From Candidatus Bathyarchaeia archaeon (lineage in GTDB: Archaea > Thermoproteota > Bathyarchaeia > Bathyarchaeales > Bathycorpusculaceae), in NCBI GenBank assembly GCA_049516875.1, contig JBEKSS010000002.1, forward strand, positions 1-64,000: 64,000 nt of DNA, written 5' to 3'. Below, piece after piece: positions 6,582-61,136 of this stretch. Every line of letters starts with the position of its first letter. Within the stretch, counting starts at the first letter, position 1. The position numbers and the translations under genes are program-made. The notes below the pieces were generated by a model. The model did not search any database. It was not told the DNA's origin and saw nothing but the letters and a program-made list of their open reading frames with translations.

Positions 6582-7240
6582 AGCTGTCTCTTTTCTGTTT
6601 TGTTTTCCGTCCTGTTGGGTGGCTCCTCGGTCTTTTGGGACAGGGCCTTTAGGCTTTTTTCCTGCAGTTCTTGTACGCTTTGTTTAATTTCGCCGATTCT
6701 TTTTTCCAGTTCCGTCAGTCCTGTGCTCAATTCTTCAATGTGGTCTAAAACATACTTTATCAAGGGTTGAATGTCCTCTGAAGCTTGAATGTTTATGACT
6801 GAACCTTTTGTTTCCGAGACTTTTTTGAAATTAAGTAGGTGGTTAATGAGCGGTGAAGGATTGTCTCGGACTTCCCTCATTAGAAAGAGGAAGTCTGAAC
6901 CGTCGGTCAAGGCTTTTCTCAGTTGTTCGAAAGCCAAACGGGAATTTGCAACGGGGTCAGATGTGTTTTGGAGTAGGATATCCTTGAATGTTGTCAAGGT
7001 TTGGGCGAGGTTTTTGTATTTGGCTTTGATGGTGGGGGTTATCTCTGGTTTCAGAATAAGCATGGATTCCTGGTTGCTTGTCGCCAGTTCGGATAGGCGG
7101 TTGATGTAGTTCTCGGTTTTTTCAAGCAGCTTTGATGGTGAAAGCCTTTCGGAAAGGGCTCCGCTGGCGATGGCGCTTGCAACCTTTTGCAAGAGCTTCT
7201 CGAATTCGCTTGTTCTTGTGTCCAGCCCTTCCTTGATCAA
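6548..7240 (-). CDS. hypothetical helical/coiled-coil protein
   Basis: Long ORF lying in the cdc6-wHTH-moaC-moaB gene string, with a heptad-like C-terminus. Confidence 0.7.
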   Translation of the reverse strand: MIKEGLDTRTSEFEKLLQKVASAIASGALSERLSPSKLLEKTENYINRLSELATSNQESMLILKPEITPTIKAKYKNLAQTLTTFKDILLQNTSDPVANSRLAFEQLRKALTDGSDFLFLMREVRDNPSPLINHLLNFKKVSETKGSVINIQASEDIQPLIKYVLDHIEELSTGLTELEKRIGEIKQSVQELQEKSLKALSQKTEEPPNRTENKTEKRQLCLSNLKAEQN

Positions 7241-7273
7241 GCAACAGCACGCTCACGTAGATAACGTCGTTCA

Positions 7274-7543
7274 CTACTTATTTGCGTGTTCCCACGTTTC
7301 AATGAGAGTCTGTACGGCTTTGGCCTTGGGTGAATTTTCATTGAGCCTGTACAGGCGGATTCTTCCAAACACCTTGTGCACCAGAACGCCTTCATCTTCC
7401 AAAGCCTTCAGGTGTTTGCTTGTCGATACGTAGTTTACGCTTAATCTTCGGGCGATTTCAGAACCGTTGAGCTCGCCAACTTGAACCAGAATTCTCAGAA
7501 TTTTCATGCGAAGTCGGGAAGAGAAAACATCCTCAACATTCAT
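7274..7543 (-). CDS. ArsR-like winged-helix regulator
   Basis: VFSSRLRMKILRIL...SEIARRL...SKHLKALEDEG...RLYRL. Confidence 0.88.
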   Translation of the reverse strand: MNVEDVFSSRLRMKILRILVQVGELNGSEIARRLSVNYVSTSKHLKALEDEGVLVHKVFGRIRLYRLNENSPKAKAVQTLIETWEHANK

Positions 7544-7549
7544 GTCTTT

Positions 7550-8734
7550 TCACATTTCTTGTTTTTCCAGCAGAGTCTTCAACTCTTTTTCAAGTTCGTC
7601 AGCTGGGATTCTGGGCAAATAAATGCCCGTCGATCTACCCCGGGAAGCCCCTGTTACAACATCGGCTTTTACTATGCCGAGGGCAGAGAGGCTTCGAAGA
7701 TATTTCCACAGTTGCGTGTGGCTTTTTGGAGCTGTGCCAAACTCTTCGCACACGACAGCATAAGATTGTTCGGCCTCAGTGAAAGCAACGTAGGCCTTCT
7801 CGTTCTTCTTGAATGTTCTGGCTATTCCAAGCAAGAAGAGTTTCTCATGAAGGCCAAGAGTAGCTAGGTCGCTTTTCCGCATCGCTGGGATTATGCTTGA
7901 GACGGCTTTTCGAACGCATTCCGGCGGGACGGTGTTTAAATCTTCGGCGTCTGCGTATTTTCCGGCTCGCCAAAGTAGTTCGATTCCGAAGCGGGCGTTT
8001 CCGCTTTCAGAGAATGCAAGTTCGGAAATCAAGTTCACAGTGTCTTCGGACACGGCTAGAGGTTTAAAGGCTAGGGAGACTCGATCGTTGAGGATGTCGG
8101 CGAGTTGTTGTTTGGAGTATTTTTCAAGGTTTATTATGTTAGACTGTAATGTACTTCTTGTGCTGGCGTCCAATTGATCAATTGCCTTGAGGTTTCGCAA
8201 GACACCTATAAGCGAGAGCCGCTGGGGCTTGTTCTGTCTTGCCTCTTGCAGGCGGGTCAGCTTGTAAACAGCTTCGGAGCCTTCTCTGTCGATGAGACTT
8301 TCGAACTCATCCAAGGCCAAGATCACGTGTGAGTTTTGCTCGTCCAGAATCTGCATTAACGAATCTAGAATCTCCTCAGCGGAGTAGCCGCGTTTTGGAA
8401 AGTTTGGATGGAAAATCGACACCACGTGCTGCAAGATGAGAAAGAGGCTTCCGTGACATTCGCGGCAATTGATGTGAACGTAGCGAAGACCTGTTCCGCG
8501 TCTGTTTGCTTCGCTTGTGATGTTCGCTCCGAAACGTTGCGAAAGCGCAGTTTTGCCAGTGCCAACATCGCCAGTTATCACAACTCGCTGGGCCATTCTT
8601 TCAGGAGACTGCAGTGCAAAGCTGAAGAATTCCATAAGCAAGCGCAGTTCTGTCTCTCTGTGGGGAAGCTTGTAGGGGACATAGTTGATGTCGAGTTTTG
8701 TCTCGTCCTTGAACACGCTTCGGTATGTTGGCAC
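7550..8734 (-). CDS. cdc6: Orc1/Cdc6 replication initiator
   Basis: YVPYKLPHRE, Walker A GDVGTGKT, Walker B LDEFE, sensor-2 GNAR and a C-terminal winged helix. Confidence 0.95.
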   Translation of the reverse strand: MPTYRSVFKDETKLDINYVPYKLPHRETELRLLMEFFSFALQSPERMAQRVVITGDVGTGKTALSQRFGANITSEANRRGTGLRYVHINCRECHGSLFLILQHVVSIFHPNFPKRGYSAEEILDSLMQILDEQNSHVILALDEFESLIDREGSEAVYKLTRLQEARQNKPQRLSLIGVLRNLKAIDQLDASTRSTLQSNIINLEKYSKQQLADILNDRVSLAFKPLAVSEDTVNLISELAFSESGNARFGIELLWRAGKYADAEDLNTVPPECVRKAVSSIIPAMRKSDLATLGLHEKLFLLGIARTFKKNEKAYVAFTEAEQSYAVVCEEFGTAPKSHTQLWKYLRSLSALGIVKADVVTGASRGRSTGIYLPRIPADELEKELKTLLEKQEM

Positions 8735-8852
8735 TTGACTGCCCTCAAAGTGACTATTACATTAAGCTTTGTTATTCTTTTCCCTTGCTTGTCGGTTAGC
8801 GCTTCGTGGAAACAAAAGACTAATAAGCGCATCAACGTTATCTATTTGCAAA

Positions 8853-9416
8853 ATGATACCGAAGTATTTCTTTCTGACAAAGGGCGTTGGAAAACACAAA
8901 GAGCAACTTCAATCTTTCGAGTTGACTTTAAGGGATGCAGGCATACAGCATTGCAATATAGTAAGCGTTTCGAGCATAGTTCCGCCAAGCTGCAAACTCC
9001 TATCAAGAGAACGCGGCCTGAAACTGATAAAGCCTGGAGAAATCACCTTCGTCGTTTTAGCTAGGAATTCAACAAACGAACCGCACAGACTCATCGCAGC
9101 GTCAATAGGAGTCGCAATCCCCTCAGGCAAGGATGACTACGGTTACCTTTCGGAGCATCACTCTTTCGGACAGACAGATGACAAGGCTGGAGACTACTCA
9201 GAGGATTTAGCGGCAACAATGCTTGCGACAACGATGGGAATTCAATTTGATCCTGAAATCGCCTGGCACGAGAAGGAACAATTGTTCAAAACTAGCGGAA
9301 TGATGATTAAGACGGCAAACGTGACGCAATCTGCAACAGGAGACAAGAGTGGCCTGTGGACAACAGTGGTCGCGGCAGCGGTGTTCGTTCCTGGAAGAAA
9401 CATGGTGAAACACTGA
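8853..9416 (+). CDS. pdaD: pyruvoyl-dependent arginine decarboxylase
   Basis: [19 protein letters not shown] (Ser-Ser cleavage site), GYLSEHH and [10 protein letters not shown]. Confidence 0.92.
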
Positions 9417-9462
9417 AGGCGACATTCGAGAGTACGCAACCATTTTTATGCTGAAACGATAA

Positions 9463-10188
<726 letters not shown>

Positions 10189-10191
10189 CAG

Positions 10192-11088
10192 GTGAGTCTG
10201 CTAGATTTGAAGGTTGAAGCTGAATGCGTGGCTTGCATAATCAGCAGGGGAGCAGCTGAAGTCAAAGAGGCTACGACCAACCCTGCCTTGCGTTTCAGGG
10301 CTATGAGCGATCTTCTGAGGCTGCTGACCAAGGAGTTCAGGCCCACAGCTGTCCCGGCGAGCTTGGGCACAAAAAGAGACGTGGTCATAAGGATAGTGAC
10401 AGGCAATCCTGACCCATACAAGAGAAGCAAGAGGATAAGCAACGAGAAAGCGCTGAGACTTCTGCCCTATGCGAGGAAACTTGTGGAAGAAGGATATACG
10501 CTGCAGGATAGGTTCAAAAGAGCCTGCCTGTGCGCTATAGTTGGCAACATAATGGAATTTGACATTCCAGGTCACAGGTTCACGTTTGGCAGTCTGAAAA
10601 AAGCCTTCAGGGATGCATCAAAAGACTTGGTCATAGACGATACGAGCAAGGTTTACGATTTAGCCAGGAAGGCGCACTCTGTTCTTTATCTCACGGATAA
10701 TGCTGGAGAAATTGTGTTTGACACTTTGCTTGTTGAACAGCTAAAGAACATGGGGTTAACCGTGACTGTGGCCGTTAAGGGAAGTCCGATAATAAATGAT
10801 GCGACTCTTGAAGATGTGGAAGTGTCTGGGATGTGCAAGGTCGCGGACAAAGTGATTACTACGGGAACAGATTCTGTGGGTCTGACGATGGATGAAGTTT
10901 CTGCGGAGTTTCGGGAAGTCTACAATTGTGTTGACTTGGTTTTTGCGAAGGGAATGGGTTACGCTGAAACTCTTACAGAGTACAAGTTGAAAAAGCCTCA
11001 CGTCCTGCTTTTTAGGACAAAGTGCAATCCTGTCGCAAACTTTTTCGGTGTCCCACGCGAAAAGAATGTTGCGAAGCTGATGCAGTGA
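10192..11088 (+). CDS. damage-control phosphatase, ARMT1/DUF89 family
   Basis: ECVAC, GNPDPY, TDNAGE, INDAT, KGMGYAE and RTKC motifs. Confidence 0.9.
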   Translation: MSLLDLKVEAECVACIISRGAAEVKEATTNPALRFRAMSDLLRLLTKEFRPTAVPASLGTKRDVVIRIVTGNPDPYKRSKRISNEKALRLLPYARKLVEEGYTLQDRFKRACLCAIVGNIMEFDIPGHRFTFGSLKKAFRDASKDLVIDDTSKVYDLARKAHSVLYLTDNAGEIVFDTLLVEQLKNMGLTVTVAVKGSPIINDATLEDVEVSGMCKVADKVITTGTDSVGLTMDEVSAEFREVYNCVDLVFAKGMGYAETLTEYKLKKPHVLLFRTKCNPVANFFGVPREKNVAKLMQ

Positions 11089-13173
11089 ATGAAGTTGCCT
11101 TCAATGAGCCTTAACAGGGAAACGCTTTCCCGTTTCGAAGATGCAATTCAGAAAGAGTGGCTTATAACAAACGGTTTAGGAGGTTACGCATCTTCCACGG
11201 TTCTGGGCATAAACACGAGGAAATATCACGGACTACTTATTGCAGCCCTTTACCCGCCGGGGGATCGCAGAGTCTTTCTCACAAAGTTGGACGAAGACAT
11301 AAACATGCAAAACGACGTTTATCGGCTTGGGGCAAACGAGTTTCAAGACGGATTCTTTCCTCAAGGATACAGCCTTCTCAAGGAGTTCTCAGTCTCACCA
11401 TTTCCAAAATATGTTTACGCATTGCCGAACGTTGAAGTTCAAAAAACAATATTCATGCCTTACGGAAAAAACGCCGTCATAACACTCTACAACATTTTGA
11501 ACAATAACAGCTTTGACATCAAGGTGCAAGTTTTCCCGATTGTAAATTGGAGGCACTTCCATTCTGTAACCGACAAATCGAAAGCACCGGTGGAGTTTGT
11601 CCAAAAACAAGATGACACCAAAGTGGAAATGAGCCTGAAGCCTCCTCAGCCCGTGCTGATAATGATGACGACCGAAGGGCATTACTCTGCAAAAGGCAAA
11701 TGGATTGAACGGTTGTACCTGCGAGAGGAAGCTCACCGTGGAGAGAGCTGCCTTGACGATTGTTATCAACCCGGATACTTTGAAACAAGCGTAGAGGCTG
11801 GGGAGAGCAGGAATTTTGCCATAGCAGCGGTTGCGGGTGAAGACGAGGACAGTGCAAGAGAGGTCTTGACTCAGCTGCCCTCGAAAACGTGTGACGTGAA
11901 AGCTTTATACGAAGAGGAAATGAGTCGCTGTGAGAATCTTTTGATAGGCTTCTACGGAACGCACAGAACTCTTAGGGCAAACAGCTGGCTAGATTGGCTT
12001 GTCCTGGCAACAGACGCGTTTCTTGTTCAGGGCGGAAGTGAAGGGCAGAAAGCAGTGATTGCTGGTTACCACTGGTTTGAAGCGTGGGGAAGGGACACGT
12101 TCATTTCTCTGCCAGGCTTGGTGCTTGTACCGAAAAGATGTGAGTACGCGAGAAGATTCTTCCTAAGCTTCAAGAAATACTGCAAGCAAGGTTTGATGCC
12201 GAACTTTCTTCCAGATCGAGCTGAACAACCAGTCTACAACACCGCTGATGCGACCCTGTGGTTTGTGAACGCGACTCTGCAGTATCTGAAATATACGGGT
12301 GACTTCAAATTCGTCAGGGAGCAACTTTGGGAAACATTGGAGTCAATCGTTGAAAATCATGTGAAAGGAACCGCCTTCAACATACACATGGACGCGGACG
12401 GCCTGCTTTCTCACGGTCCACAGTTGACTTGGATGGATGCAGTGTTTGAAGGCAAGCCAGTGACTCCTCGGGTTGGAAAGGCAGTTGAAATTCAAGCTTT
12501 GTGGTACAACACTCTAAGAACGGCACAGTTGCTGGCAGAAAAGTTCAACGAGAAAAATCAGGCAGAAACGTATCGACAGACAGCTGAAAAAACGAGAAAG
12601 AGTTTCGCTGAAAAGTTCTGGAACGTAGAAAGAGGTTGCTTGTATGACGTCGTACACGAACCGGAACGCGACGATTCGTTGAGGCCGAATCAGATTCTTG
12701 CTGTAGCGCTGGATTTTAACATGCTAGACAGTGCAAGAAACGAGAAGATTGTAGACACGGTGGAACGTGGACTCTTGACGCCCTACGGTTTAAGGACTCT
12801 TGGAAGGAATGACTCGAGATACGTTGGAATCTACGCTGGTGACCGAAAAAGCAGAGACAACGCCTACCACAATGGTACGGTTTGGCCTTGGTTGTTAGGG
12901 CCCTTCGTCACGGCATTTCTGAAAACGAAAGGTCACACGGAGTCCCTGCGCGAATGTGCGCTGAAGAATTTCATTATGCCATTGTTTGCGGAAAAGTTGT
13001 TTGAAGGTGGGCTTGGAACCTTAAATGAGATCTTCGACGGTGACGCGCCGCACACTTCTAGAGGATGTATCTCTCAAGCTTGGAGCGTGGCAGAACCTCT
13101 CAGGGCTTGCGTGGAAGATATCATGCAGGTTAGGCCAAAATATGAAAATGAAGTTTTGCACGAGCTAGGATGA
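11089..13173 (+). CDS. glycogen debranching enzyme (amylo-alpha-1,6-glucosidase)
   Basis: EWLITNGLGGYAS, AGYHWF, WGRDTFISL, LTWMDA, RPNQ, YHNGTVWPW and QAWS motifs. Confidence 0.93.
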   Translation: MKLPSMSLNRETLSRFEDAIQKEWLITNGLGGYASSTVLGINTRKYHGLLIAALYPPGDRRVFLTKLDEDINMQNDVYRLGANEFQDGFFPQGYSLLKEFSVSPFPKYVYALPNVEVQKTIFMPYGKNAVITLYNILNNNSFDIKVQVFPIVNWRHFHSVTDKSKAPVEFVQKQDDTKVEMSLKPPQPVLIMMTTEGHYSAKGKWIERLYLREEAHRGESCLDDCYQPGYFETSVEAGESRNFAIAAVAGEDEDSAREVLTQLPSKTCDVKALYEEEMSRCENLLIGFYGTHRTLRANSWLDWLVLATDAFLVQGGSEGQKAVIAGYHWFEAWGRDTFISLPGLVLVPKRCEYARRFFLSFKKYCKQGLMPNFLPDRAEQPVYNTADATLWFVNATLQYLKYTGDFKFVREQLWETLESIVENHVKGTAFNIHMDADGLLSHGPQLTWMDAVFEGKPVTPRVGKAVEIQALWYNTLRTAQLLAEKFNEKNQAETYRQTAEKTRKSFAEKFWNVERGCLYDVVHEPERDDSLRPNQILAVALDFNMLDSARNEKIVDTVERGLLTPYGLRTLGRNDSRYVGIYAGDRKSRDNAYHNGTVWPWLLGPFVTAFLKTKGHTESLRECALKNFIMPLFAEKLFEGGLGTLNEIFDGDAPHTSRGCISQAWSVAEPLRACVEDIMQVRPKYENEVLHELG

Positions 13174-49475: not shown

Positions 49476-50960
49476 GTGTGTTTGGAAGACAAGATAATCC
49501 TAACTGCCGACAGTACCCTGATGAGTGATTATCATCATAACGAGTTTCTGGGTTTCGGAACATGCGCTCCATCAAATTTCATCCCGGACTTCCTGTATGA
49601 ACAACTCTTCTTTCCAGCAATTAAAACAAAAAGTGGTGCACCAGTTGAAGCGCCTTACGGGCTGAGAAAAATAGAGGCTCAGCTCGTGAGAGAAGGTTTC
49701 AACGTTTCGACGGTGGCGCCAGACCATCTTAAATCATGCGTAAAAGAGGCGAAGGTGCTTGGCATTCACGTGATGGACCCTTTCGGTTTAGGTCCTGCAT
49801 CAAGCACGTTAGCAGCCATCATGAAGAAAGAACCGTTCTTGGCCAGACACTTTCGCGAGCTGCTGGGTTCTTCAGAAATCAGGGAGGCAAAGAAGCGGGG
49901 CTTGAAAATCATCGTGGGCGGTCCTGGTGTTTGGCAGATGCACTACAGGCCAAACTTCGTCAAGAATTATGGGATAGACTGTATAATTGAGGGAGAAGCT
50001 GAAAACGTCGTTGGAAAAATCTTCAAAGCAGCAATCAACGGTGCAGACCTTCCTGCTAGTTATGAGACAAGCGTTCAAGAGACGCCAAGCTTAGACGAGA
50101 TACCTGAAATCGTCGGGCCTTCTGTTAACGGTTTGGTAGAAATCGGGCGTGGATGTTGCCGAGGATGCAGCTTCTGCAGCGTGACTCTGAGGCCGCTTCG
50201 ATGGTTTCCGATTGAGAAAATACTCAAGGAGATAGAAGTGAACCTCACAGCCAACGTTGGAGGAGTAATCCTTCACACTGACGACGTCATGCTCTACGGC
50301 TCAAAGAACACTCTACCAGACGACGAGAAACTCTTCAAACTCAACGAAACAGTCCTGAAGAAATGCAACAGCATATCGTGGAGTCACTGTTCAATAGCAG
50401 CTGTAGCCTCAAAACCGAAACTCTTCGCGAAAGTGGCTGAGCTAGTCCGCCAGAAACAGCCTTGGTGGGGCGCCGAAATAGGACTGGAAACAGGTTCCCC
50501 AGAACTTGCCAAAAAAATCATGCCGGCAAAAGCTCACCCGTTCAAACCAGAAGACTGGCCTGAAGTCGTGCGGACCGGCATGGGACTGATGCACGATAAC
50601 ATGCTCGTTCCAGCCTTAACGCTCATTGTAGGAGTTCCAGAAGAAACGGAGAACGACTTAATAAAAACGATAGAACTAATGGATGACTTGAAAGCCTTCA
50701 GAAGCCTAATAGTTCCTCTGTTTTTCGTTCCGATGGGCAGGCTCAAGGACGAGGACTGGTTCAGAGACACACATATGACGAGGCTACATTATGAGCTGCT
50801 GACAAAGTGTGTGGAACACGACCTCTACTGGATGGGCAATTTGATAAGCATGGGCTTTTCCAGCAACTGGAGAGAACGCGTCATAAGCCCCTTCTACAGG
50901 CTCTTCGTGAGCATAACCAAGTACAAATTGAGACAGGCCGGCATCAACGTAAAGCTGTAA
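49476..50960 (+). CDS. radical SAM protein with B12-binding-like N-terminal domain
   Basis: APYGLRKIEA, IIVGGPG, GEAE, GRGCCRGCSFC (CxxxCxxC) and GLETGS. Confidence 0.88.
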   Translation: MCLEDKIILTADSTLMSDYHHNEFLGFGTCAPSNFIPDFLYEQLFFPAIKTKSGAPVEAPYGLRKIEAQLVREGFNVSTVAPDHLKSCVKEAKVLGIHVMDPFGLGPASSTLAAIMKKEPFLARHFRELLGSSEIREAKKRGLKIIVGGPGVWQMHYRPNFVKNYGIDCIIEGEAENVVGKIFKAAINGADLPASYETSVQETPSLDEIPEIVGPSVNGLVEIGRGCCRGCSFCSVTLRPLRWFPIEKILKEIEVNLTANVGGVILHTDDVMLYGSKNTLPDDEKLFKLNETVLKKCNSISWSHCSIAAVASKPKLFAKVAELVRQKQPWWGAEIGLETGSPELAKKIMPAKAHPFKPEDWPEVVRTGMGLMHDNMLVPALTLIVGVPEETENDLIKTIELMDDLKAFRSLIVPLFFVPMGRLKDEDWFRDTHMTRLHYELLTKCVEHDLYWMGNLISMGFSSNWRERVISPFYRLFVSITKYKLRQAGINVKL

Positions 50961-51090: not shown

Positions 51091-51638
51091 CACACAAACC
51101 GAGGACTACCGACCTTTTCGCCTTCCAACCCAACTTTTTCCTATCTTTTTCTAGCTCTGCAGAGAGGTTTATTTGAGGTTCCAACTAAACAAAACATCAT
51201 ACGACTCTGCCCCGTTTTCGCCTAGACCCCCTAGTTTTTTGCTTGCATGAAGCCTCCGACGTATCATAGTTTGTGGTATCAGAACCCTTAGACTATGCCG
51301 CGCGTCGGGTTTGTGCCTACGACGAAAGGTGATGTCACCCCAACCCCCTTTTTCCACCCAGAAAGGAATGGTCTGTGCATAGGTTGCTAAACATCAACCT
51401 ATTGAACTGTGGAGACCGCTGGGCGCGCGCTTCAATCGTCCTCATTCATTCTAGTCTACGATATTGTTTCATAATGGGACTACACGAGAATATCGGTCTG
51501 CCTAACGCTACGTAGACATAGCACAGCACTGAACGACAAGTAAATATCATAGATGTCGATTCGTGGTTAGTATACCTTATTATCAACTGGAACAAACACT
51601 TTAAATCTCAGCCGTTTGGAAAAGGGAAAGAGGGTCAA

Positions 51639-52008
51639 TATGGACCAAGAAGGAAAGGAAGAATATACCGAATTCCTCAACCTCATAAAGATATTCATTT
51701 CCATGCTTAGCGAGAACGGTAAGTTGATTACGAAGATGGGAGAAATAGAGAAGAGATTTCCGAACGAATTCAAGATGATGAAAGAGTTCTCTCCGGAGAG
51801 ACTTGATGCTTTTGTGGAAAAAGCACCACCTGAGATTGCAGGCCTGTTCCTGAAAATAATGCTCAGGGCGGCGGCTATGGGGCCAAAGACTAGTAGAGCC
51901 ATGGAACTGCCGGCTGAAGAAAAACTCGAACTTGGGAAGCAGATAAACGAGCTCGTCAAAGATCTAGAAATCCTCTTGAAAAAAGTTGAAGAGGAGAGTA
52001 AGAAATGA
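51639..52008 (+). CDS. hypothetical helical protein (island)
   Basis: First of three translationally coupled ORFs, with ATG at 51639 (ORF-track start 51616). Confidence 0.7.
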
Positions 52009-52376
52009 GCCTAGAACCACAACAACTGTTTTCAGGGTTATGGTCATCAATCAGAGAAGGACTAATCTCGATGTTTTTCCCGTCTGATTTGTTGCACCCG
52101 ATAGAAAAGGCGGCACAGTACATTTCCACAAAGTTCGAACAGAATGTTGTTCTGGAAACAGATATGATTCTCAAACAAACAACGCTGAAAACCATCATAG
52201 GACCAGAAGATCACTATCAGAGACTATGCCTCAGATCTCTTGCAGGTCTTCCCGCGATTCCTAGGACCATTAACGAAAACCCTGTAAGCGTGACAGACCT
52301 CAAAGGTTGCTTATCTTGGGTCTCAAAAGGCAAGATCGATGTAACTGAACTTATCCGAGAAATCCGGGATAGCTAA
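52005..52376 (+). CDS. putative antitoxin
   Basis: C-terminal KIDVTELIREIRD resembles archaeal VapB-type tails. Its stop overlaps the PIN start (TAATG). Confidence 0.55.
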   Translation: MSLEPQQLFSGLWSSIREGLISMFFPSDLLHPIEKAAQYISTKFEQNVVLETDMILKQTTLKTIIGPEDHYQRLCLRSLAGLPAIPRTINENPVSVTDLKGCLSWVSKGKIDVTELIREIRDS

Positions 52377-53026
52377 TGACCGATTCTGCACCAGTGAGAA
52401 TCTATCCGGATACCAACATTCTTGTCTCGTATTCATTAGGGGATTCAGATGAGAACTTTGAACTTGCTGAAAAGCTGTTCGAAGAAGTCCAGAATAACAA
52501 ATACATGATGGTGGTCTCCAATTTCACCCTAATGGAGACTCTGCATGCGCTTCGGACAATAGTCACGAAAATGAAATATCAAGAACTTGACAACAGCCCA
52601 TCTCAAGGCGATTTGATACAAATCGCAAACTCAAAACCTTTCGAAGAAACTGTACACAAAGAGAGCATGAAGGCCTTCAGCACGATCATCGACAAGATAA
52701 CGAAAGACACACAACACTTCAGTTTCGAACCAGACGGCTTAACATACCCAAACGAAACATTTGCGGCAGGTCTCCCCTTGCTGTTGGCAACCAAAGGATC
52801 TTTTCGCGTATACAGGTTTCGCTGCCAGAAATGCAACAGCTATCTGAAATGCTCTTCCTGCAGAGTTGATAGCGAGATTGTCTATAAGGAAGCAAATGCT
52901 CCAGATCTAGTTCACCTATTGATATCAGAGCGGCTCGGATGCAAACTGTTTTTCACCATGGACAAATCCTTCGCAAACATACCCATTAAAGATGGGCGAG
53001 TGAAGATAGAAGTATTAGCAAAGTGA
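52376..53026 (+). CDS. PIN-domain (VapC-like) nuclease with inserted zinc finger
   Basis: IYPDTNILV, SNFTLMET, DLVHL and FFTMDK motifs with inserted CQKC-x4-CSSC. Confidence 0.85.
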   Translation: MTDSAPVRIYPDTNILVSYSLGDSDENFELAEKLFEEVQNNKYMMVVSNFTLMETLHALRTIVTKMKYQELDNSPSQGDLIQIANSKPFEETVHKESMKAFSTIIDKITKDTQHFSFEPDGLTYPNETFAAGLPLLLATKGSFRVYRFRCQKCNSYLKCSSCRVDSEIVYKEANAPDLVHLLISERLGCKLFFTMDKSFANIPIKDGRVKIEVLAK

Positions 53027-53491: not shown

Positions 53492-54439
<948 letters not shown>

Positions 54440-54546
54440 CTACTAGATAACCCTTGTCAACAACGCAAAACCGCGCGGCCAGGGCAAGGGTTAAAGTCTT
54501 TTATTCGTGTTCCGATCATAAGCCTTCTCTCAGAGGGAAATCTGGC

Positions 54547-55011
54547 TTGAGCGAAACAGAGCTGCGGGTTTCCAAAATCAGAGACGGCACGGTAATCGAT
54601 CACATCACCGGCGGCCACGCCCTAGACGTTGCCAAAATCCTGGGAATAACGGGCCGCGAGAAAGGACCCATAACCATAGCCATCAACGTTCCAAGCAAAC
54701 GGTTCAGAACAAAGGACATCCTCAAAATCGAGGGCAGAGAACTCAACCCTCAGGAAGTGCACAAAATCGCCCTCATAGCGCCACACGCGACCATCAACAT
54801 CGTCCGCAACTACAAGGTGATAAAAAAACAAGAAGTCAAGCTGCCGAAGACCATAGAGAACATCATCAAGTGCGCGAACCCCGCTTGCATAAGCAACAGC
54901 AACGAGCCTGTTAAACCCAAATTCTACGTTGAATCCGAGGATCCCCTGTTGCTGAAGTGTCATTACTGCGGCAACATCATCGAGAAAAAGGATTTACTCC
55001 AACAGTTCTAG
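54547..55011 (+). CDS. pyrI: aspartate carbamoyltransferase regulatory subunit
   Basis: GTVIDHI, KDILKIE, CANPACIS and CHYC motifs. Confidence 0.96.
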   Translation: MSETELRVSKIRDGTVIDHITGGHALDVAKILGITGREKGPITIAINVPSKRFRTKDILKIEGRELNPQEVHKIALIAPHATINIVRNYKVIKKQEVKLPKTIENIIKCANPACISNSNEPVKPKFYVESEDPLLLKCHYCGNIIEKKDLLQQF

Positions 55012-56291: not shown

Positions 56292-56353
56292 GTTTTGAGA
56301 CTCAAAGAAATCACGGATTGAGTACTCAAACACAAGGACTCAAAACACAACAT
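56292..56353. repeat. 62-bp double-palindrome repeat, copy 2
   Basis: GTTTTGAGACTCAAAGAAATCACGGATTGAGTACTCAAACACAAGGACTCAAAACACAACAT. Confidence 0.9.
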
Positions 56354-56391
56354 ACCCACAACCAAAAAACAACATCGCACAAACAGCAGAA

Positions 56392-56469
56392 TGGTGGGGC
56401 TGCCCGGATTTGAACCGGGGTCACGAACGCCCGAGGCTCATAGCCTAGACCAAACTAGCCGACAGCCCC
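56392..56469 (-). tRNA. tRNA-Pro(CGG)
   Basis: GGGGCTG acceptor stem, anticodon CGG, GGTTCAAATCC and encoded CCA. Confidence 0.93.
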
Positions 56470-56578
56470 AAACCCTTCACCCATTCCTATTTCCAAAACC
56501 ACAAAATAAGCCTATCCCAACACCTTTAAACCCCACACACCCAAAATAGTACACCCCCACCACCACAGAGGCCAAACC

Positions 56579-58771
56579 TTGTCCGCCAGCCACCGCACCC
56601 ACGGAATCAAAATCCTCAAAGCCATAGGCTCACCCCTAAGACTGCAAATCCTGAACCTCCTTTTCGACAAAGGCTCCCTCAGCTACACGGAACTCATGAG
56701 CAACTTGAAAATGAACCCAAGCAGAGACGCAGGAAGATTCGCCTACCACCTCAAATTCCTCCTCAAAGCAGACCTCATCGAAGCCATCGTCGACCAAAAA
56801 AAATACGGCCTAACCGACCTCGGCAAAATGGTCATCGACGTCGCCGACAGAATAGACAAAAAAGCCTACAAAACAAAAAACACACTCATCCGCGCCAGTA
56901 GATCAGCCATAGAAGAATTCGACGCCAACAAAATCGCAAACGCACTAATAAAAGAAGCCAAAATGCCCCCCGAACAAGCACAAAAAATAGCCAAAGAAGC
57001 CGAAACCCAACTCCTCAAATCCAAAACCAAATACCTAACCACCCCACTCGTGAGAGAACTCGTAAACGCCATCCTCATCGAAAAAGGCCTCGAAGAATAC
57101 CGAAACAAACTCACACGCCTCGGAATACCCGTCCACGACGTCACCAACCTCCTACACACACAGCAACAACCAACAAGCCCGCTGGAAGCAGCAGGACAAA
57201 CAGTCTTCAAAGAATACACACTCCTGAACACGTTGCCAAGAGACATCGCAGACGCCCACCTCTCAGGCGCCCTACACATCAACAACCTCAGCACATGGAT
57301 ACTCAAACCCACAGAAACCGTACACGACATCAGATTCTTCCTACAAAACGGCCTAAACCTAGAAACAATCAACCCCACCCAAACCAACCAACCCCCACCC
57401 CACAACCTGGACACAGCCCTAACAACACTCTTCAACGTCCTCCTCCACTCACAAAAAGAAACAGAAACAACCCAAACACTCGAATACTTCAACACCCTCC
57501 TCGGCCCATACACAAAAAACCAGGAACCAGCAAAAACAAAAGAAGCACTGCACCAGTTCATAACAAACCTAAGCCAACACACAGACACCGCCATAAGCCT
57601 AGAACTCACGACACCAGGCTTTTTAGCCGAAAAAACCGCCATCGCACCAGACGGCAAACAAGCCGGCAAGTACGCGGACTACACGGAAGAAACCCAGCAG
57701 CTAGCATCACTGCTCCTGGACACATTCACCGAAGAAAGCGCTCAAAAACCGTTGGTCAACCCCAAACTCATCATCAAAATACGCCCAGAAACACTCAAAG
57801 ACGAAACAGCAAAAGCCACACTCCTCAAAGCCCACGCACTTGTAGCACACAACGGCACACCATACTTCGCCAGCTTAACAGAGCATAAACAAACAGTCCA
57901 CACCCCTTCAGGGTTCAAACTGGACGCCGAAGCAGACGACGACTGGGAAATCGACACTCTCCGCACCGGACTCCTGGGCACTGTAACAGTAAACGTGCCA
58001 CGTGTAGCCTACGAATCTGGAAACGACAAGACAAAGTTCCTCGAAACGCTCAAGGAAAGACTTGAAATGGCAAACCGCGCCCTGGAAATCAAACACCAAG
58101 CCCTAAGACAACACGGCAAGAACCTGCTCCCATTCCTCATGCAGAACACCGACGGCGACCAGTACTTCAGACTCGAAAAAAGCATACACACGATAAACCT
58201 GGCAGGACTGACAGAAGCCGCAGAAGCCTTCACGGGCAAGAGCATCGAAGACGAGAAAACCGTAGCCTTCGTCCAAGAAACCGCACAGAACATCACAACG
58301 TTCATAAACAAAATCGGAAGAAAACGCGGAAAACACCTGTACGCAGCAACGATGCCAAACCCCGAAGCCTCAGCAAGACTGGCACAACTGGACATCGAAA
58401 GATACGGAATCGCAAGAGTCCACTTCTCAGGCACAAGAGACAAACCCTACTACTCCACAACAGACACAGTCACACTCAAGAACGGCAACATCCCCCAACA
58501 ACCCCAAACGACGAGGAGCAGAACAAGCCAAACACGCACGGGCGGAAACCTAACGCTGATCGAACTCGACGAGACACAACACGAACCAGAACAGCTTCTT
58601 TCGGTAACTAGGCAACTCGTAGAAAACCGCAACATGGAATTCTTCACCTACAACCGCAAAACAACCTACTGCACAAACTGCAAAAAAACTTGGCCCGGCC
58701 AGGCACACAAGTGCCCCCAATGCAACGCCGTGAGCACACTCACGTACTACGACAGATCCGACCAAACCTAG
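56579..58771 (+). CDS. wHTH + ATP-cone + catalytically inactive class III ribonucleotide reductase (NrdD-like) fusion
   Basis: N-terminal wHTH (SPLRLQIL..SYTELM..GRFAYHL), ATP-cone (FDANKI..LVRELV) and NrdD motifs (PRDIADAHLSG.LHI, RTG.LG.VTVN.PR, RLA.LD, PYY, CxxC..CPxC). No RxxGY motif. Confidence 0.85.
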   Translation: MSASHRTHGIKILKAIGSPLRLQILNLLFDKGSLSYTELMSNLKMNPSRDAGRFAYHLKFLLKADLIEAIVDQKKYGLTDLGKMVIDVADRIDKKAYKTKNTLIRASRSAIEEFDANKIANALIKEAKMPPEQAQKIAKEAETQLLKSKTKYLTTPLVRELVNAILIEKGLEEYRNKLTRLGIPVHDVTNLLHTQQQPTSPLEAAGQTVFKEYTLLNTLPRDIADAHLSGALHINNLSTWILKPTETVHDIRFFLQNGLNLETINPTQTNQPPPHNLDTALTTLFNVLLHSQKETETTQTLEYFNTLLGPYTKNQEPAKTKEALHQFITNLSQHTDTAISLELTTPGFLAEKTAIAPDGKQAGKYADYTEETQQLASLLLDTFTEESAQKPLVNPKLIIKIRPETLKDETAKATLLKAHALVAHNGTPYFASLTEHKQTVHTPSGFKLDAEADDDWEIDTLRTGLLGTVTVNVPRVAYESGNDKTKFLETLKERLEMANRALEIKHQALRQHGKNLLPFLMQNTDGDQYFRLEKSIHTINLAGLTEAAEAFTGKSIEDEKTVAFVQETAQNITTFINKIGRKRGKHLYAATMPNPEASARLAQLDIERYGIARVHFSGTRDKPYYSTTDTVTLKNGNIPQQPQTTRSRTSQTRTGGNLTLIELDETQHEPEQLLSVTRQLVENRNMEFFTYNRKTTYCTNCKKTWPGQAHKCPQCNAVSTLTYYDRSDQT

Positions 58772-58805
58772 ATAGTAGTGTTCTGCATTGTAACCTTCTG
58801 CTGGT

Positions 58806-59107
58806 ATGTTGGCTTGTGAGCCCTTTTGTTTGAGTGCTCAATCCGTGATTTCTTTGAGACTCAAAACATTGTTGAAGCATGTTGGTTTGAAGCTTTTTTT
58901 ACTCAATTCTGCCTGGTTTTTGAGTGTCAAAAGTTTCGGCATGCTGAGTTTCTCATGTTAGAGTCGGAGGCCTTGCGTTTGAGTACTCGATGCGTGATTT
59001 TTTTGGGTGTCAAAAGTGGGTTTCGATGTTTGCTCGTGCGTGTTGCATGTTGGGTTTTAGGCTTCTGGCTTTGAGGTTCAATTCGTGGTTTCTTTGGGTG
59101 TTAAAGG
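58806..59107. repeat. tandem array of four degenerate 62-bp repeat units, inverted relative to copies 1-2
   Basis: Units at 58806-58867, 58879-58933, 58955-59016 and 59047-59107. Each starts ATGTT and ends with a TTTG(A/G)G..T(C/T)AAA-like motif. Confidence 0.85.
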
Positions 59108-59144
59108 CGGGTGGTTTTCTGTTTGTTGGTGTTTTGGGTGTGGG

Positions 59145-60062
59145 TTATCTTGTTTTTGCGGGTGGTTTGGATTTTTTTATGGCGAGGTAGATGGTTGTGG
59201 CTGCTAGGATGATGGTTGATGTTATGAGGGTGTAGTTGATGTTTGTGCTGAGGGCTTGTTGGCCGCGAGCGGCGTCGTAGTTTGCTGTGAGGCTTGTGTA
59301 GCTTGAGTTTAGTGCGTTGTAGTATTGTGTTAGGTTGTTGTAGTTGGAGTTGAGGGATTGGAGGCTGTTTTGTAGGCTGGTGTAGTTTGCCAGTAGTGCG
59401 TTGAATGTTGTGTGGAGGCTGTTGTAGTTTGTTTCTTGTGAGTTGTAGTTGGCTGCTAGTGAATTGTAGTTTGCGGTTAGGCTGTTGTAGTTGGCGAGTA
59501 GTGTGTTGTAGCTCAGGTTGAGTTGGTTGGTCTGGCTGAGAAGGTTGGCGTAGGCTGTTGAGGTTTCGTTGAAGTTGGTGAGTAGCTGGGTGTAGTTGGC
59601 GAGTAGGTTGGTGTAGTCGGTGAGCAGGGAGTTGTAGGTGGCGTTCAGGGTCGTGTATTCTGGGGATGGGACGAATTCTGTTATTGTGAAGGTGAAGTTG
59701 AAGCTTACTGGGCCGTAGTTGAAGATGGATGAGTCTACTCGGATGGTGTGGTTTCCCACGTTGGACAGCGGAGGCTCGGTAGGGACTGTCAGGTTGTAGT
59801 TGTAGGAGCCGTCTGCTCCTAGCGCGCCCTGCTGGTTGAGGGCTACGGTGGTGTCGTCCCAGAAGATGTCGGCTGTCTGGACGTTGCCCACGCTTGCGTT
59901 TGTCGTGGTGAATCTGAGGAGGATGATCGTGGTGGCTGTCCCTTGTGAAGGAAGTATTTCTGCCTCTATCGGGCTGCCCTGGGCTCTCACTTGCATCGCC
60001 GTTAAGCCTATCAGAGATATGAGAACGAAAATTGCCATCAATGTCTTGTAAGGTTTGTTCAT
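59145..60062 (-). CDS. surface protein with signal peptide, beta-rich domain, Asn/Tyr heptad coiled-coil stalk and C-terminal TM anchor
   Basis: Repeated NYNSL.A heptads, many NxS/T sequons, and a TM helix followed by a KKSK tail. Confidence 0.85.
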   Translation of the reverse strand: MNKPYKTLMAIFVLISLIGLTAMQVRAQGSPIEAEILPSQGTATTIILLRFTTTNASVGNVQTADIFWDDTTVALNQQGALGADGSYNYNLTVPTEPPLSNVGNHTIRVDSSIFNYGPVSFNFTFTITEFVPSPEYTTLNATYNSLLTDYTNLLANYTQLLTNFNETSTAYANLLSQTNQLNLSYNTLLANYNSLTANYNSLAANYNSQETNYNSLHTTFNALLANYTSLQNSLQSLNSNYNNLTQYYNALNSSYTSLTANYDAARGQQALSTNINYTLITSTIILAATTIYLAIKKSKPPAKTR

Positions 60063-60434: not shown

Positions 60435-61136
60435 ATGGCAGTCGACCAAGAAAACGTGTCAAAAATTCTGTCCGTAATATCTCATAGCCTGAGAAGAGAG
60501 ATTCTCCTAAACCTCAGTGAAAAGAATGAATGCTCCTTCACAGAATTGATGAATGATCTCAATGTGGACACAGGAAAACTTAGTTTTCACATTCGAAGTC
60601 TCGATGTTTTTCTGGAACGGACACCAACTGGGAAATACAGATTAAGCAAAGTAGGCGAAAATGCGGTAAGACTGGTCAAAGACTTAGAAGGGTGGGCAGC
60701 AGAAGCAGAGGTTGCAAGAAAAACATCCAGTCTGCCAATTGCCACCTTCAAGAAAAGAACTCTCGCTTTTCTCATAGACTTTTCTCTGACCCTTGCAATA
60801 TCAATTCTGATAACGCTGCCGAATGCTGTTTCTCTGCTGGCGGGAGGCGCATTCGCTTTGGATACAACCCTCGTTGTTTTTCTCGTTCTTCTGTGGGGAT
60901 ATTCGACCCTTTTGGAGGGATTTGCTGGTCAGAGTTTAGGAAAACGTATTATGGGCCTGAAAGTTGTGAAAATCGACGGCAAAAAACTGTTCTACGACGC
61001 TGCAGCTGTGAGGAATTTTGGCAAAGCTTTTCTACTACCGTTTGACCTGCTCATTGGCCTGAGATTAGAGGACGAGAGGTTTATCAGGTACTTCGACAAG
61101 TTCGCTGGCACAACTGTAATAGACTTGAAACCCTGA
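60435..61136 (+). CDS. wHTH + RDD-domain membrane protein
   Basis: SFTELM..L.VDTGKLSFHI, then RDD motifs KRTLAFLID, GQSLGKRIMGLKVV and DKFAGT.V. Confidence 0.85.
   Translation: MAVDQENVSKILSVISHSLRREILLNLSEKNECSFTELMNDLNVDTGKLSFHIRSLDVFLERTPTGKYRLSKVGENAVRLVKDLEGWAAEAEVARKTSSLPIATFKKRTLAFLIDFSLTLAISILITLPNAVSLLAGGAFALDTTLVVFLVLLWGYSTLLEGFAGQSLGKRIMGLKVVKIDGKKLFYDAAAVRNFGKAFLLPFDLLIGLRLEDERFIRYFDKFAGTTVIDLKP

Follow-up and report, generated by a model that had tools for sequence, protein, structure and literature searches.

A catalytically dead class III ribonucleotide reductase fused to a winged helix, a candidate nucleotide-responsive regulator in Bathyarchaeia and related archaea

The closest described relatives of the protein reported here are NrdR, in which a DNA-binding Zn ribbon is joined to an ATP-cone, and the class III (anaerobic) ribonucleotide reductases (RNRs), NrdD, of which the nearest active examples are archaeal enzymes with one or two ATP-cones of a variant, VRTS type (for example P0187, P0175 and P0211). 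To our knowledge archaea mostly lack NrdR, and in the literature searched no description was found of gene-level control of archaeal deoxyribonucleoside triphosphate (dNTP) or pyrimidine synthesis. Enzyme folds have been reused elsewhere as regulators or scaffolds. In PyrR and PurR phosphoribosyltransferase folds serve as sensors in the regulation of nucleotide genes, PyrR binding RNA and keeping its enzyme activity, while the M45/UL45 proteins of beta-herpesviruses are catalytically inactive homologues of the class I RNR large subunit that are kept as scaffolds. Here we describe a protein of 730 amino acids (aa), P0001, encoded in a 64,000-nt stretch of the genome of a Candidatus Bathyarchaeia archaeon (contig JBEKSS010000002.1 of assembly GCA_049516875.1, positions 1 to 64,000; hereafter the window), in which a winged helix-turn-helix (wHTH) and an ATP-cone precede a catalytically dead NrdD body.

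The window protein resembles NrdR in combining a DNA-binding module with an ATP-cone, in standing at an RNR gene in one lineage (nrdJ, in 55 of 60 genomes) and in its proposed nucleotide-dependent DNA binding. It differs in that the module is a winged helix rather than a Zn ribbon, the cone is of the VRTS type and a 520-aa dead RNR body is present; moreover, the main neighbour of its family is pyrB/pyrI rather than an RNR gene, and a true NrdR coexists in the genome. With the nearest active NrdDs it shares the fold, cone, linker, Zn ribbon and, in the model, a dimer formed through the same helices, and its family is nested among them in the tree, but the catalytic residues are gone, a wHTH replaces the N-terminal cone and no nrdG is adjacent. 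M45/UL45 differ in RNR class, carry a RHIM rather than a wHTH and act on host cell-death signalling. PyrR and PurR likewise employ an enzyme fold as the sensing part of a regulator and share the pyr link, but their folds are unrelated, whereas the family described here has a dead enzyme fold and probably senses through its ATP-cone. The components, ATP-cone regulators like NrdR and pseudoenzymes, are known, while their combination and its pyr/nrdJ context appear to be undescribed; the literature searched, including papers on RNR evolution, yielded no description of a wHTH–NrdD fusion or of a dead NrdD family, such sequences possibly being treated in supplements or RNRdb subclass lists.

We consider it fairly likely that the window protein, built from a dead class III RNR, acts as a dimer to regulate the transcription of genes for pyrimidine and dNTP synthesis in response to nucleotides. 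The view draws on the domain architecture, the family-wide loss of catalytic residues, the constraint on the wHTH and the recurrent proximity of pyrB, pyrI or nrdJ.

Architecture and catalytic residues of the window protein

An earlier, sequence-only reading of the window had described an uninterrupted 730-aa open reading frame (ORF) with a winged helix, an ATP-cone and an NrdD-like body, a description that is upheld by Pfam, an AlphaFold2 (AF2) model and Foldseek. The window copy is an ordinary family member, and its TTG start and N-terminus are common to six of seven orthologues compared, the seventh using GTG. The N-terminal domain passes the cut-offs (those of the Pfam or NCBIfam models, here and below) of two ArsR/SmtB-type winged-helix families, DUF7347 (residues 13-87, 30.5 bits, cut-off 27.6) and HTH_5 (residues 18-68, 28.9 bits, cut-off 22). 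In the AF2 model it comprises helices 19-31, 36-42 and 47-63 and a beta wing at 67-78, and L28, H57, Y76 and G82 are invariant in 60 diverse family members. The ArsR/SmtB metal-sensing model NF033788 (HTH_metalloreg) gave 28.9 bits, below its cut-off of 55, and the domain contains no Cys. Downstream of the ATP-cone (PF03477, residues 107-174, 35.9 bits, cut-off 25.8) the body matches NRDD (PF13597) over residues 203-726 (240 bits, E 6.8e-71), while the NrdD equivalog model TIGR02487 scores 246.7 bits, below its cut-off of 326.35. The AF2 model, made from an alignment of 60 family members, has a mean predicted local distance difference test (pLDDT) score of 89.2 and a predicted TM-score (pTM) of 0.80. 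Used as a Foldseek query, it retrieved class III RNR chains at all ranks from 1 to 36 as listed, including those of S. thermophilus, P. copri, T. maritima and phage T4, with target-normalised TM-scores of up to 0.76.

The protein contains four Cys (698, 701, 712 and 715, in CTNC...CPQC) and none in residues 1-697, which agrees with the earlier assignment of its only cysteines to a C-terminal Zn site. In a MAFFT alignment TVHTPSGFKLD occupies the place of the finger loop VRSMCCRLRID of this genome's own NrdD; the placement given by hidden Markov model (HMM) alignment differs by four residues, and residues 439-460 are all free of Cys. The C-terminus, YDRSDQT-stop, stands opposite YSRVVGYLRPV, and R..G[YFW] was not found in the three forward frames of the ~330 nt past the stop. 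The PSGFK loop, the YYDRSDQT end and the lack of a GY beyond the stop, all noted previously, are thus borne out by alignment and frame scan. The column of the second catalytic Cys, on beta-strand 1, is E246, the HxHD triphosphate motif reads H233-I-N-N, and the columns of the NxN flap and loop 2 are gapped, loop 2 being shortened and its GxQ gone. The functional names of the flap, loop 2, HxHD and the bridging Glu are used as in the P. copri NrdD paper (PMC11226230).

These losses extend through the family. In a comparison of 94 wHTH-aligned representatives with nine active NrdDs, at columns where all nine agree, Cys accounted for 0 of 94 among the four commonest residues of the thiyl column (S/T/D/N), the following Arg was also lost, and the beta-1 Cys was replaced by T, E, S or N. 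The two Asn of the NxN flap are gapped in 80 and 88 of the 94, the loop-2 Gly in 37 and the loop-2 Gln in 60; the Glu that bridges substrate and flap is kept in only 20, and the Asn-Ser of YTNS is lost. The radical-loop Gly-Tyr column is gapped in 49 and retains Gly in 13, and all 120 closest homologues (59-95% identity) lack RxxGY and end a few residues after the second CxxC. The positions that are kept are mainly structural, such as the His of the AH motif (83/94), NxPR (79-93/94) and several Gly and Pro, together with the R...D and Y motifs (D548-equivalent in 87/94, Y571-equivalent in 86/94). The Zn cysteines are kept in 73-76 of the 94 and are invariant in the 60 diverse members. The 13 wHTH-bearing members with Gly in the glycyl column (for example P0137, P0145, P0154 and P0166) also have a long C-terminal domain and no finger-loop Cys, and may be intermediate forms.

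Judged from its sequence the window protein is a pseudoenzyme, as proposed earlier, since all of the radical-chemistry residues are missing. The barrel also appears to lack the elements that hold the substrate and transmit specificity, so that of the allosteric features of RNRs the ATP-cone alone seems to survive. The claim that the allosteric nucleotide sites were retained therefore stands for the cone, albeit in its VRTS variant, and fails for the rest given the loss or degradation of HxHD, the NxN flap and the GxQ of loop 2. In the specificity-site region the HMM alignments to three solved NrdD structures disagree, so sequence alignment is unreliable there. Near the dimer helices K200, Q217 and Q249, which are invariant in active NrdDs and to which a role in those enzymes is ascribed, are kept in 40, 16 and 14 of the 94 representatives.

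The cone has an N-terminal motif of the form I/V-R-x-S-R...E-E-F in place of the canonical V-x-K-R-D-G. Compared with the residues that hold the phosphates in canonical cones, R105 stands for K and A106 for R, while K118 and Y174-R175 are kept; nucleotide binding by the variant cone is a conjecture. Residues R105, F114, I119, L123, E126, R159, L166, R175, R180, G182 and P184 of the cone and linker are invariant in the 60 diverse members. A VRTS cone of the same kind and the same TRLGxPVYDV linker occur in the nearest active archaeal NrdDs, which continue with an ENANL flap that is absent from the dead family. Some of these enzymes carry two tandem cones, and the wHTH stands where the outer cone sits in them. 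Many genomes across the phylum also encode stand-alone ATP-cones in ORFs of ~100 aa (92-136 aa), whose match to the NrdR model is confined to its cone part.

Two copies of residues 200-690 were modelled as a dimer with an ipSAE interface score of 0.51, compared with 0.00 for the best control. Among proteins solved as pairs of one chain 20 of 30 attained the mark applied to this score, as did 1 of 23 solved as single chains. At least 89% of contacts are common to the runs, the pLDDT of the partner is 81 or higher, and the predicted contacts are made through helices 278-290 and 326-334. As NrdD dimers have already been solved, the pass may reflect recall of a known complex.

Distribution, phylogeny and selection

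A word-indexed search returned 1598 matches, and most of the best 120 (59-95% identity) have the wHTH, the cone and the NrdD body; shorter entries among these 120 that lack an HTH family are probably truncated gene calls. HMMER, run over 1.84 billion cluster representatives, gave 1824 matches at E<=1e-3 and 338 at E<=1e-30. When 152 sequences (the 150 best representatives, the window protein and this genome's own NrdD) were scanned with family-specific HMMs, both wHTH and cone were detected in 93, so that the fusion and the loss of Cys and Gly, the conservation of which had been put forward as a check, are indeed shared by homologues. Of 401 genomes sampled from the phylum, 329 were matched by a family profile at E<=1e-20, the lowest-scoring matches probably being true NrdDs. 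Database members with an organism name belong to Bathyarchaeia, Nitrososphaerales, Nitrosopumilus and the Asgard lineages Jordarchaeia/Freyarchaeota, and carry public labels such as 'anaerobic ribonucleoside-triphosphate reductase', 'ArsR family transcriptional regulator' and 'ATP-cone domain-containing protein'. The records call these proteins anaerobic RNRs even in the aerobic Nitrosopumilus, and inferences of class III RNR or anaerobic dNTP synthesis drawn from them in metabolic reconstructions are probably wrong.

In a FastTree phylogeny (110 sequences, with the canonical NrdD of this genome as root), the wHTH proteins form one clade (86 of 87 tips) nested among archaeal NrdDs, with local support of 0.555 at its node and 0.989 one node deeper. 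Dead NrdDs in which the family HMM detects no wHTH (for example P0190, P0206, P0192, P0234 and P0253) form separate lineages; they have no finger-loop Cys and no glycyl motif, and some lack the Zn site. P0190 and P0206 have an additional, N-terminal ATP-cone, and the others have an N-terminal stretch of ~80 residues. Because these lineages branch beside different active archaeal NrdDs, catalysis may have been lost more than once. One locus from a genome of the Bathyarchaeia class (L133, about 6998-11400) contains two family copies in tandem, of 766 and 708 aa.

The genome that contains the window (2.43 Mb, 20 contigs, 97% complete) also encodes active RNRs, which had been sought as a further check. 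Contig C5 carries an operon of nrdR (TIGR00244, 161 bits, cut-off 125), a true nrdD of 705 aa with MCCRLR and RVVGY (PF13597, 657 bits, against 241 for the window protein in the same comparison) and nrdG (NrdG2; TIGR02495, 178 bits, cut-off 131); a 698-aa frame for a large subunit of class I/II type lies on contig C10. The window protein is 22% identical to the true NrdD. As stated earlier, no nrdG was found near the gene in the window, the real nrdG being that on C5. A 494-aa radical-SAM ORF at 49476-50960, 5.6 kb upstream, was considered as an activase and rejected, as it matched only B12-binding/radical-SAM and MiaB-like models, all below cut-off.

True NrdR was detected above cut-off in 25 of the 401 sampled genomes, every one in the window's own family, and most carriers of the dead NrdD protein therefore lack NrdR. 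Such a restriction would be consistent with that family having acquired the operon. The window protein itself gives no TIGR00244 match and lacks the N-terminal Zn ribbon of NrdR, while possessing an ATP-cone. The earlier suggestion of an archaeal NrdR analogue thus holds as a description of how the protein may work, and not as one of family membership, since a true NrdR is present in the genome.

Nei-Gojobori ratios of non-synonymous to synonymous substitution (dN/dS) for the 40 closest orthologue pairs (84-93% identity) give evidence of the purifying selection that the sequence-only reading had called for. For the whole gene the ratio is 0.02-0.16 in 39 of the 40 pairs. Values for the wHTH are 0-0.12 in all 38 pairs with a computable domain value, those for the cone are 0.02-0.14 where computable, except for the window versus L005, its closest orthologue (0.25), and those for the body are 0.04-0.19 in 38 of 39 pairs, the window versus L005 again being higher (0.30). 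The wHTH is the most constrained domain, and the cone and linker are graded as constrained as the wHTH.

The window gene has third codon positions with almost no T or G (AT skew +0.89, GC skew -0.63), as has its L005 orthologue (10001-12196, 84% identical; AT skew +0.97, GC skew -0.84), and a neighbouring 305-aa ORF on the opposite strand (59145-60062) shows the mirror-image skew. Elsewhere in the window |skew| stays below 0.2 in almost every 2-kb bin, and most orthologues are free of the bias. An mRNA composed mostly of A and C, such as that of the window gene, could hardly fold on itself.

Gene neighbourhood, proposed mechanism and alternative explanations

The link to nucleotide metabolism assumed in the sequence-only reading is backed by the neighbours of the family gene. 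In the 80 loci of highest similarity, all from species-representative genomes (76 labelled Bathyarchaeia/Bathyarchaeota, two Nitrososphaerota and two 'uncultured archaeon'), pyrB lies directly downstream and convergent in 79, the 80th ending inside the gene, and the stop-to-stop gaps are mostly about 10-80 bp. With a crude gene caller the pyrB cluster came out at +1 in 76 of 78 loci, whereas no gene at any of the other positions between -3 and +3 recurred in more than 14 of 72, so that residual synteny does not account for the pairing. All six neighbours tested exceed the TIGR00670 cut-off for pyrB. Only 25 of the 80 loci have the regulatory-chain gene pyrI next after pyrB. In these 25, as in the window, pyrB and pyrI diverge from a spacer (~115 bp in the window) instead of forming the usual pyrBI operon. 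Of 20 loci from more distant families (29-43% identity), seven have pyrB or pyrI at a distance of no more than 3 kb, and a coordinate comparison found pyrI within 6 kb in 27 further genomes from 11 families.

A different neighbour is seen in the genomes of Nitrosopumilus type (family f15), one copy from which is identical to a protein recorded under Nitrosopumilus. The gene was found in 60 of 61 such genomes searched, and nrdJ likewise. Both genes are present in 60 genomes and adjoin in 55 of these, the family gene being directly upstream of nrdJ on the same strand in 54 and divergent in one; in the remaining five the two genes are on different contigs. This nrdJ encodes a B12-dependent class II RNR (TIGR02504, 715 bits). 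In most f15 genomes the family protein is the sole profile match at E<=1e-20, no second NrdD-like gene being found with that query. One f15 genome (G414, C1:1756007-1758075) has the gene in two overlapping pieces with an internal TGA, which may result from a frameshift or a sequencing error or mark a broken copy.

A TATA-like box could be aligned in 65 of 71 upstream regions of orthologues (TTTAAA-type in 61, TATAAAT in four). The conserved promoter reads TTAAG-TTTAAAC and is followed in many orthologues, ~14 nt downstream, by a AATAATAGGTA-like element; in these alignments an operator is not separable from general promoter and initiator features. In f15 (L115-L119) GATC occurs 51 times in the 3002 nt of the two spacers that flank the gene, one upstream of it and one before nrdJ, and 20 times in the 6312 nt of the other spacers of these five loci, a ~5-fold higher density, often as AAACTGATCA. 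Tandem repeats of GATC-bearing units are present in L117 and L118, and some sites are explained by such repeats or by the stop region of the upstream gene. The sites are a candidate operator array, which we regard as a lead rather than a finding.

These observations suggest a mechanism in which the NrdD body, no longer binding substrate, would act as a dimer scaffold that holds two winged helices on a two-part operator. An adenine nucleotide (ATP or dATP) bound by the ATP-cone would, in the manner of active class III RNRs and of NrdR, shift the N-terminal modules or make them oligomerise, and DNA binding would be turned on or off accordingly. Transcription of pyrBI, of the RNR gene nrdJ and probably of the gene itself would thereby be coupled to the nucleotide pool. 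As a canonical NrdR stands beside nrdDG in the same genome, the likely local targets of the dead NrdD protein here are pyrB/pyrI and its own gene.

Several observations weigh against this proposal. DNA binding, nucleotide binding and a two-part operator are features that the proposal predicts. The cone lacks the canonical K-R-D-G and, in a BLAST alignment with this genome's NrdD, seven residues before the final Y-R, departures that leave ATP or dATP binding not assured; according to PMC4390871, Pfam ATP-cone matches cannot tell functional from non-functional cones. The commonest pyrB layout is tail-to-tail, neither an operon nor the divergent arrangement typical of local regulators, and in the window the gene is displaced from the 3' end of pyrB. 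Beyond general architecture, no motif was found that is convincingly common to the gene's promoter (71 orthologue upstream regions) and the pyrB/pyrI promoters, the latter covered by the sequences preceding pyrB and, where pyrI adjoins it, by the spacer between the two. The conserved recognition-helix motif DAGKFAYHL is also present in an unrelated neighbouring protein, in which a wHTH is joined to an RDD membrane domain, and may be structural rather than target-specific. Finally, dN/dS between the window gene and its closest orthologue (the 40th pair) is higher than in the other pairs, at 0.28, a value probably inflated by the extreme codon bias of these genes.

The tail-to-tail arrangement could also reflect action on proteins. 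It is unlikely, though worth weighing, that the dead RNR binds aspartate carbamoyltransferase (ATCase; PyrB/PyrI) or the class II RNR and modulates it according to the nucleotide in the cone, the wHTH serving as a tether to protein or nucleic acid. Consistent with such a role the conserved neighbour is a convergent enzyme gene and not a promoter, pseudoenzymes often regulate their active relatives, and the Cys4 Zn ribbon has been kept in a protein whose neighbour, the window PyrI, also has a metal-binding domain (PF02748), the domain that docks PyrI onto the catalytic chain. However, the wHTH is the most constrained domain and matches DNA-binding families, and the partner varies with lineage (pyrB, pyrI or nrdJ), which is easier to accommodate by a DNA-binding regulator than by a docking surface. 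Replacement of PyrI by the dead NrdD protein was rejected as the principal explanation, as PyrI is present in 331 of the 401 phylum genomes, and within the window's class in almost every genome, and so has not been replaced; its retention also weakens the protein-level alternative.

A remaining enzymatic function appears improbable. The old barrel might perform non-radical nucleotide chemistry, for example as a hydrolase, or bind or store nucleotides, with the wHTH providing autoregulation in the manner of trigger enzymes. Purifying selection acts on the barrel, which keeps several residues common to NrdDs, including the His of the AH motif, NxPR and the D548 and Y571 equivalents. The conserved positions are, however, a subset of those in active NrdDs, the 60 diverse members reveal no family-specific invariant cluster suggestive of a new active site, and degradation has affected the NxN flap, loop 2, HxHD and the bridging Glu alike, the roles of these elements being those given in PMC11226230.

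A sensor that binds origins or licenses replication according to dNTP supply, as had also been suggested, is a very improbable alternative for which no evidence in favour was found. The idea of a dNTP sensor joined to a DNA-binding domain would in general suit it, and the local cumulative GC skew has a minimum by the gene, but the skew is limited to the gene and its neighbour and tracks their coding strands, and the conserved neighbours are pyrB, pyrI and nrdJ, with no cdc6/orc, mcm or polymerase gene among them. That the gene is a decaying or mis-assembled nrdD copy without function, for which the sub-cut-off TIGR02487 score and the higher dN/dS against the closest orthologue might be cited, is hardly credible and is refuted by a frame intact in the window and in nearly all orthologues, an architecture conserved across the family, dN/dS far below 1 in all domains and a confident AF2 model.

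If the regulatory interpretation is extended to the whole family, a broader scenario emerges that we hold only tentatively, its correctness being somewhat doubtful. Nucleotide pools in Thermoproteota (Bathyarchaeia and the globally abundant, ammonia-oxidising Nitrososphaeria), and those in some Asgard archaea, would be regulated chiefly by this family, derived from a duplicated archaeal NrdD whose outer cone gave way to a winged helix and whose catalysis was lost. Repositioning of the cone on the dead dimeric barrel would switch DNA binding and so control nrdJ and pyrBI, in the roles that NrdR and PyrR have in bacteria. The combination of wHTH, ATP-cone and dead RNR is in any case a concrete and testable regulator candidate, placed by nrdJ in ammonia oxidisers and by pyrB/pyrI elsewhere. 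If confirmed, it would illustrate clearly how a prokaryote can reuse a whole radical enzyme as a regulator, and would offer a natural system in which the mechanics of the ATP-cone and of the RNR dimer are uncoupled from catalysis.

Other features of the locus

The features of the gene and its surroundings are collected in Table 1. In the window a block consisting of pyrB(-), pyrI(+), a 133-aa ORF(+) and a 156-aa ORF(-) lies upstream of the family gene rather than downstream, with pyrB 2.1 kb away. This layout is a local rearrangement, in which the segment bracketed by the inverted repeat has swapped sides with the pyrB-pyrI-133aa-156aa block. Degenerate further copies of the repeat are present at 58967-59015 and 59068-59112. 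The tRNA-Pro sequence found directly upstream in the window has a similar tRNA-like counterpart before the gene in many orthologous loci. The real start of pyrI is probably ~30 codons inside the called ORF, judging from homologue alignments that begin at residues 26-32.

Table 1. Positions of the gene, its domains and associated features (window coordinates unless a contig is named)
Feature	Position	Strand	Basis or remarks
Whole gene: wHTH, ATP-cone and catalytically dead NrdD body, 730 aa, TTG start	56579..58771	+	Uninterrupted ORF
wHTH (DUF7347 / ArsR HTH_5), residues 13-87	56615..56839	+	Pfam
Variant ATP-cone and conserved linker, residues about 103-184	56885..57130	+	Pfam ATP-cone 107-174, invariants
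NrdD-like alpha/beta-barrel body, residues 203-726, lacking radical-chemistry and substrate-loop residues	57185..58756	+	PF13597
Former Cys finger loop, residues 441-451, HTPSGFKLDAE, no Cys	57899..57931	+	MAFFT and HMM alignments
Retained Zn ribbon, C698, C701, C712, C715	58670..58723	+	Sequence, family alignment
Shortened tail, NAVSTLTYYDRSDQT-stop, where the glycyl-radical loop would be	58724..58771	+	Alignment
Putative promoter/leader	56480..56578	+	TTTAAAC TATA-like box 54 nt before the start, AAAATAGTAC ~14 nt downstream, GAGG ~10 nt before TTG
tRNA-Pro(CGG), directly upstream	56392..56469	-	Same tRNA-like sequence before the gene in many orthologous loci
Inverted repeat, left arm, 65 nt, 89% complementary	56292..56356		Brackets tRNA-Pro and gene
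Inverted repeat, right arm	58803..58867		Degenerate further copies downstream
pyrB (aspartate carbamoyltransferase catalytic chain)	53492..54430	-	TIGR00670, 398.6 bits, cut-off 237
pyrI (ATCase regulatory chain)	54454..55011	+	PF01948, PF02748
nrdR-nrdD-nrdG operon	Contig C5 (L001 776-4082)		Model matches; canonical KRDG cone
Class I/II-type RNR large-subunit frame, 698 aa	Contig C10

The wHTH-RDD protein referred to above (DUF7347/ArsR-type, 233 aa) is encoded at 60435-61136 (+), and the recognition-helix motif that it has in common with the dead NrdD protein can be written G-K-x-x-F/Y-H-I/L-R. On the other side of pyrB, two small overlapping ORFs (51616-52376) are followed by a PIN-domain protein (52376-53026, +); this cassette, which the orthologous loci do not conserve, is possibly toxin–antitoxin-like.

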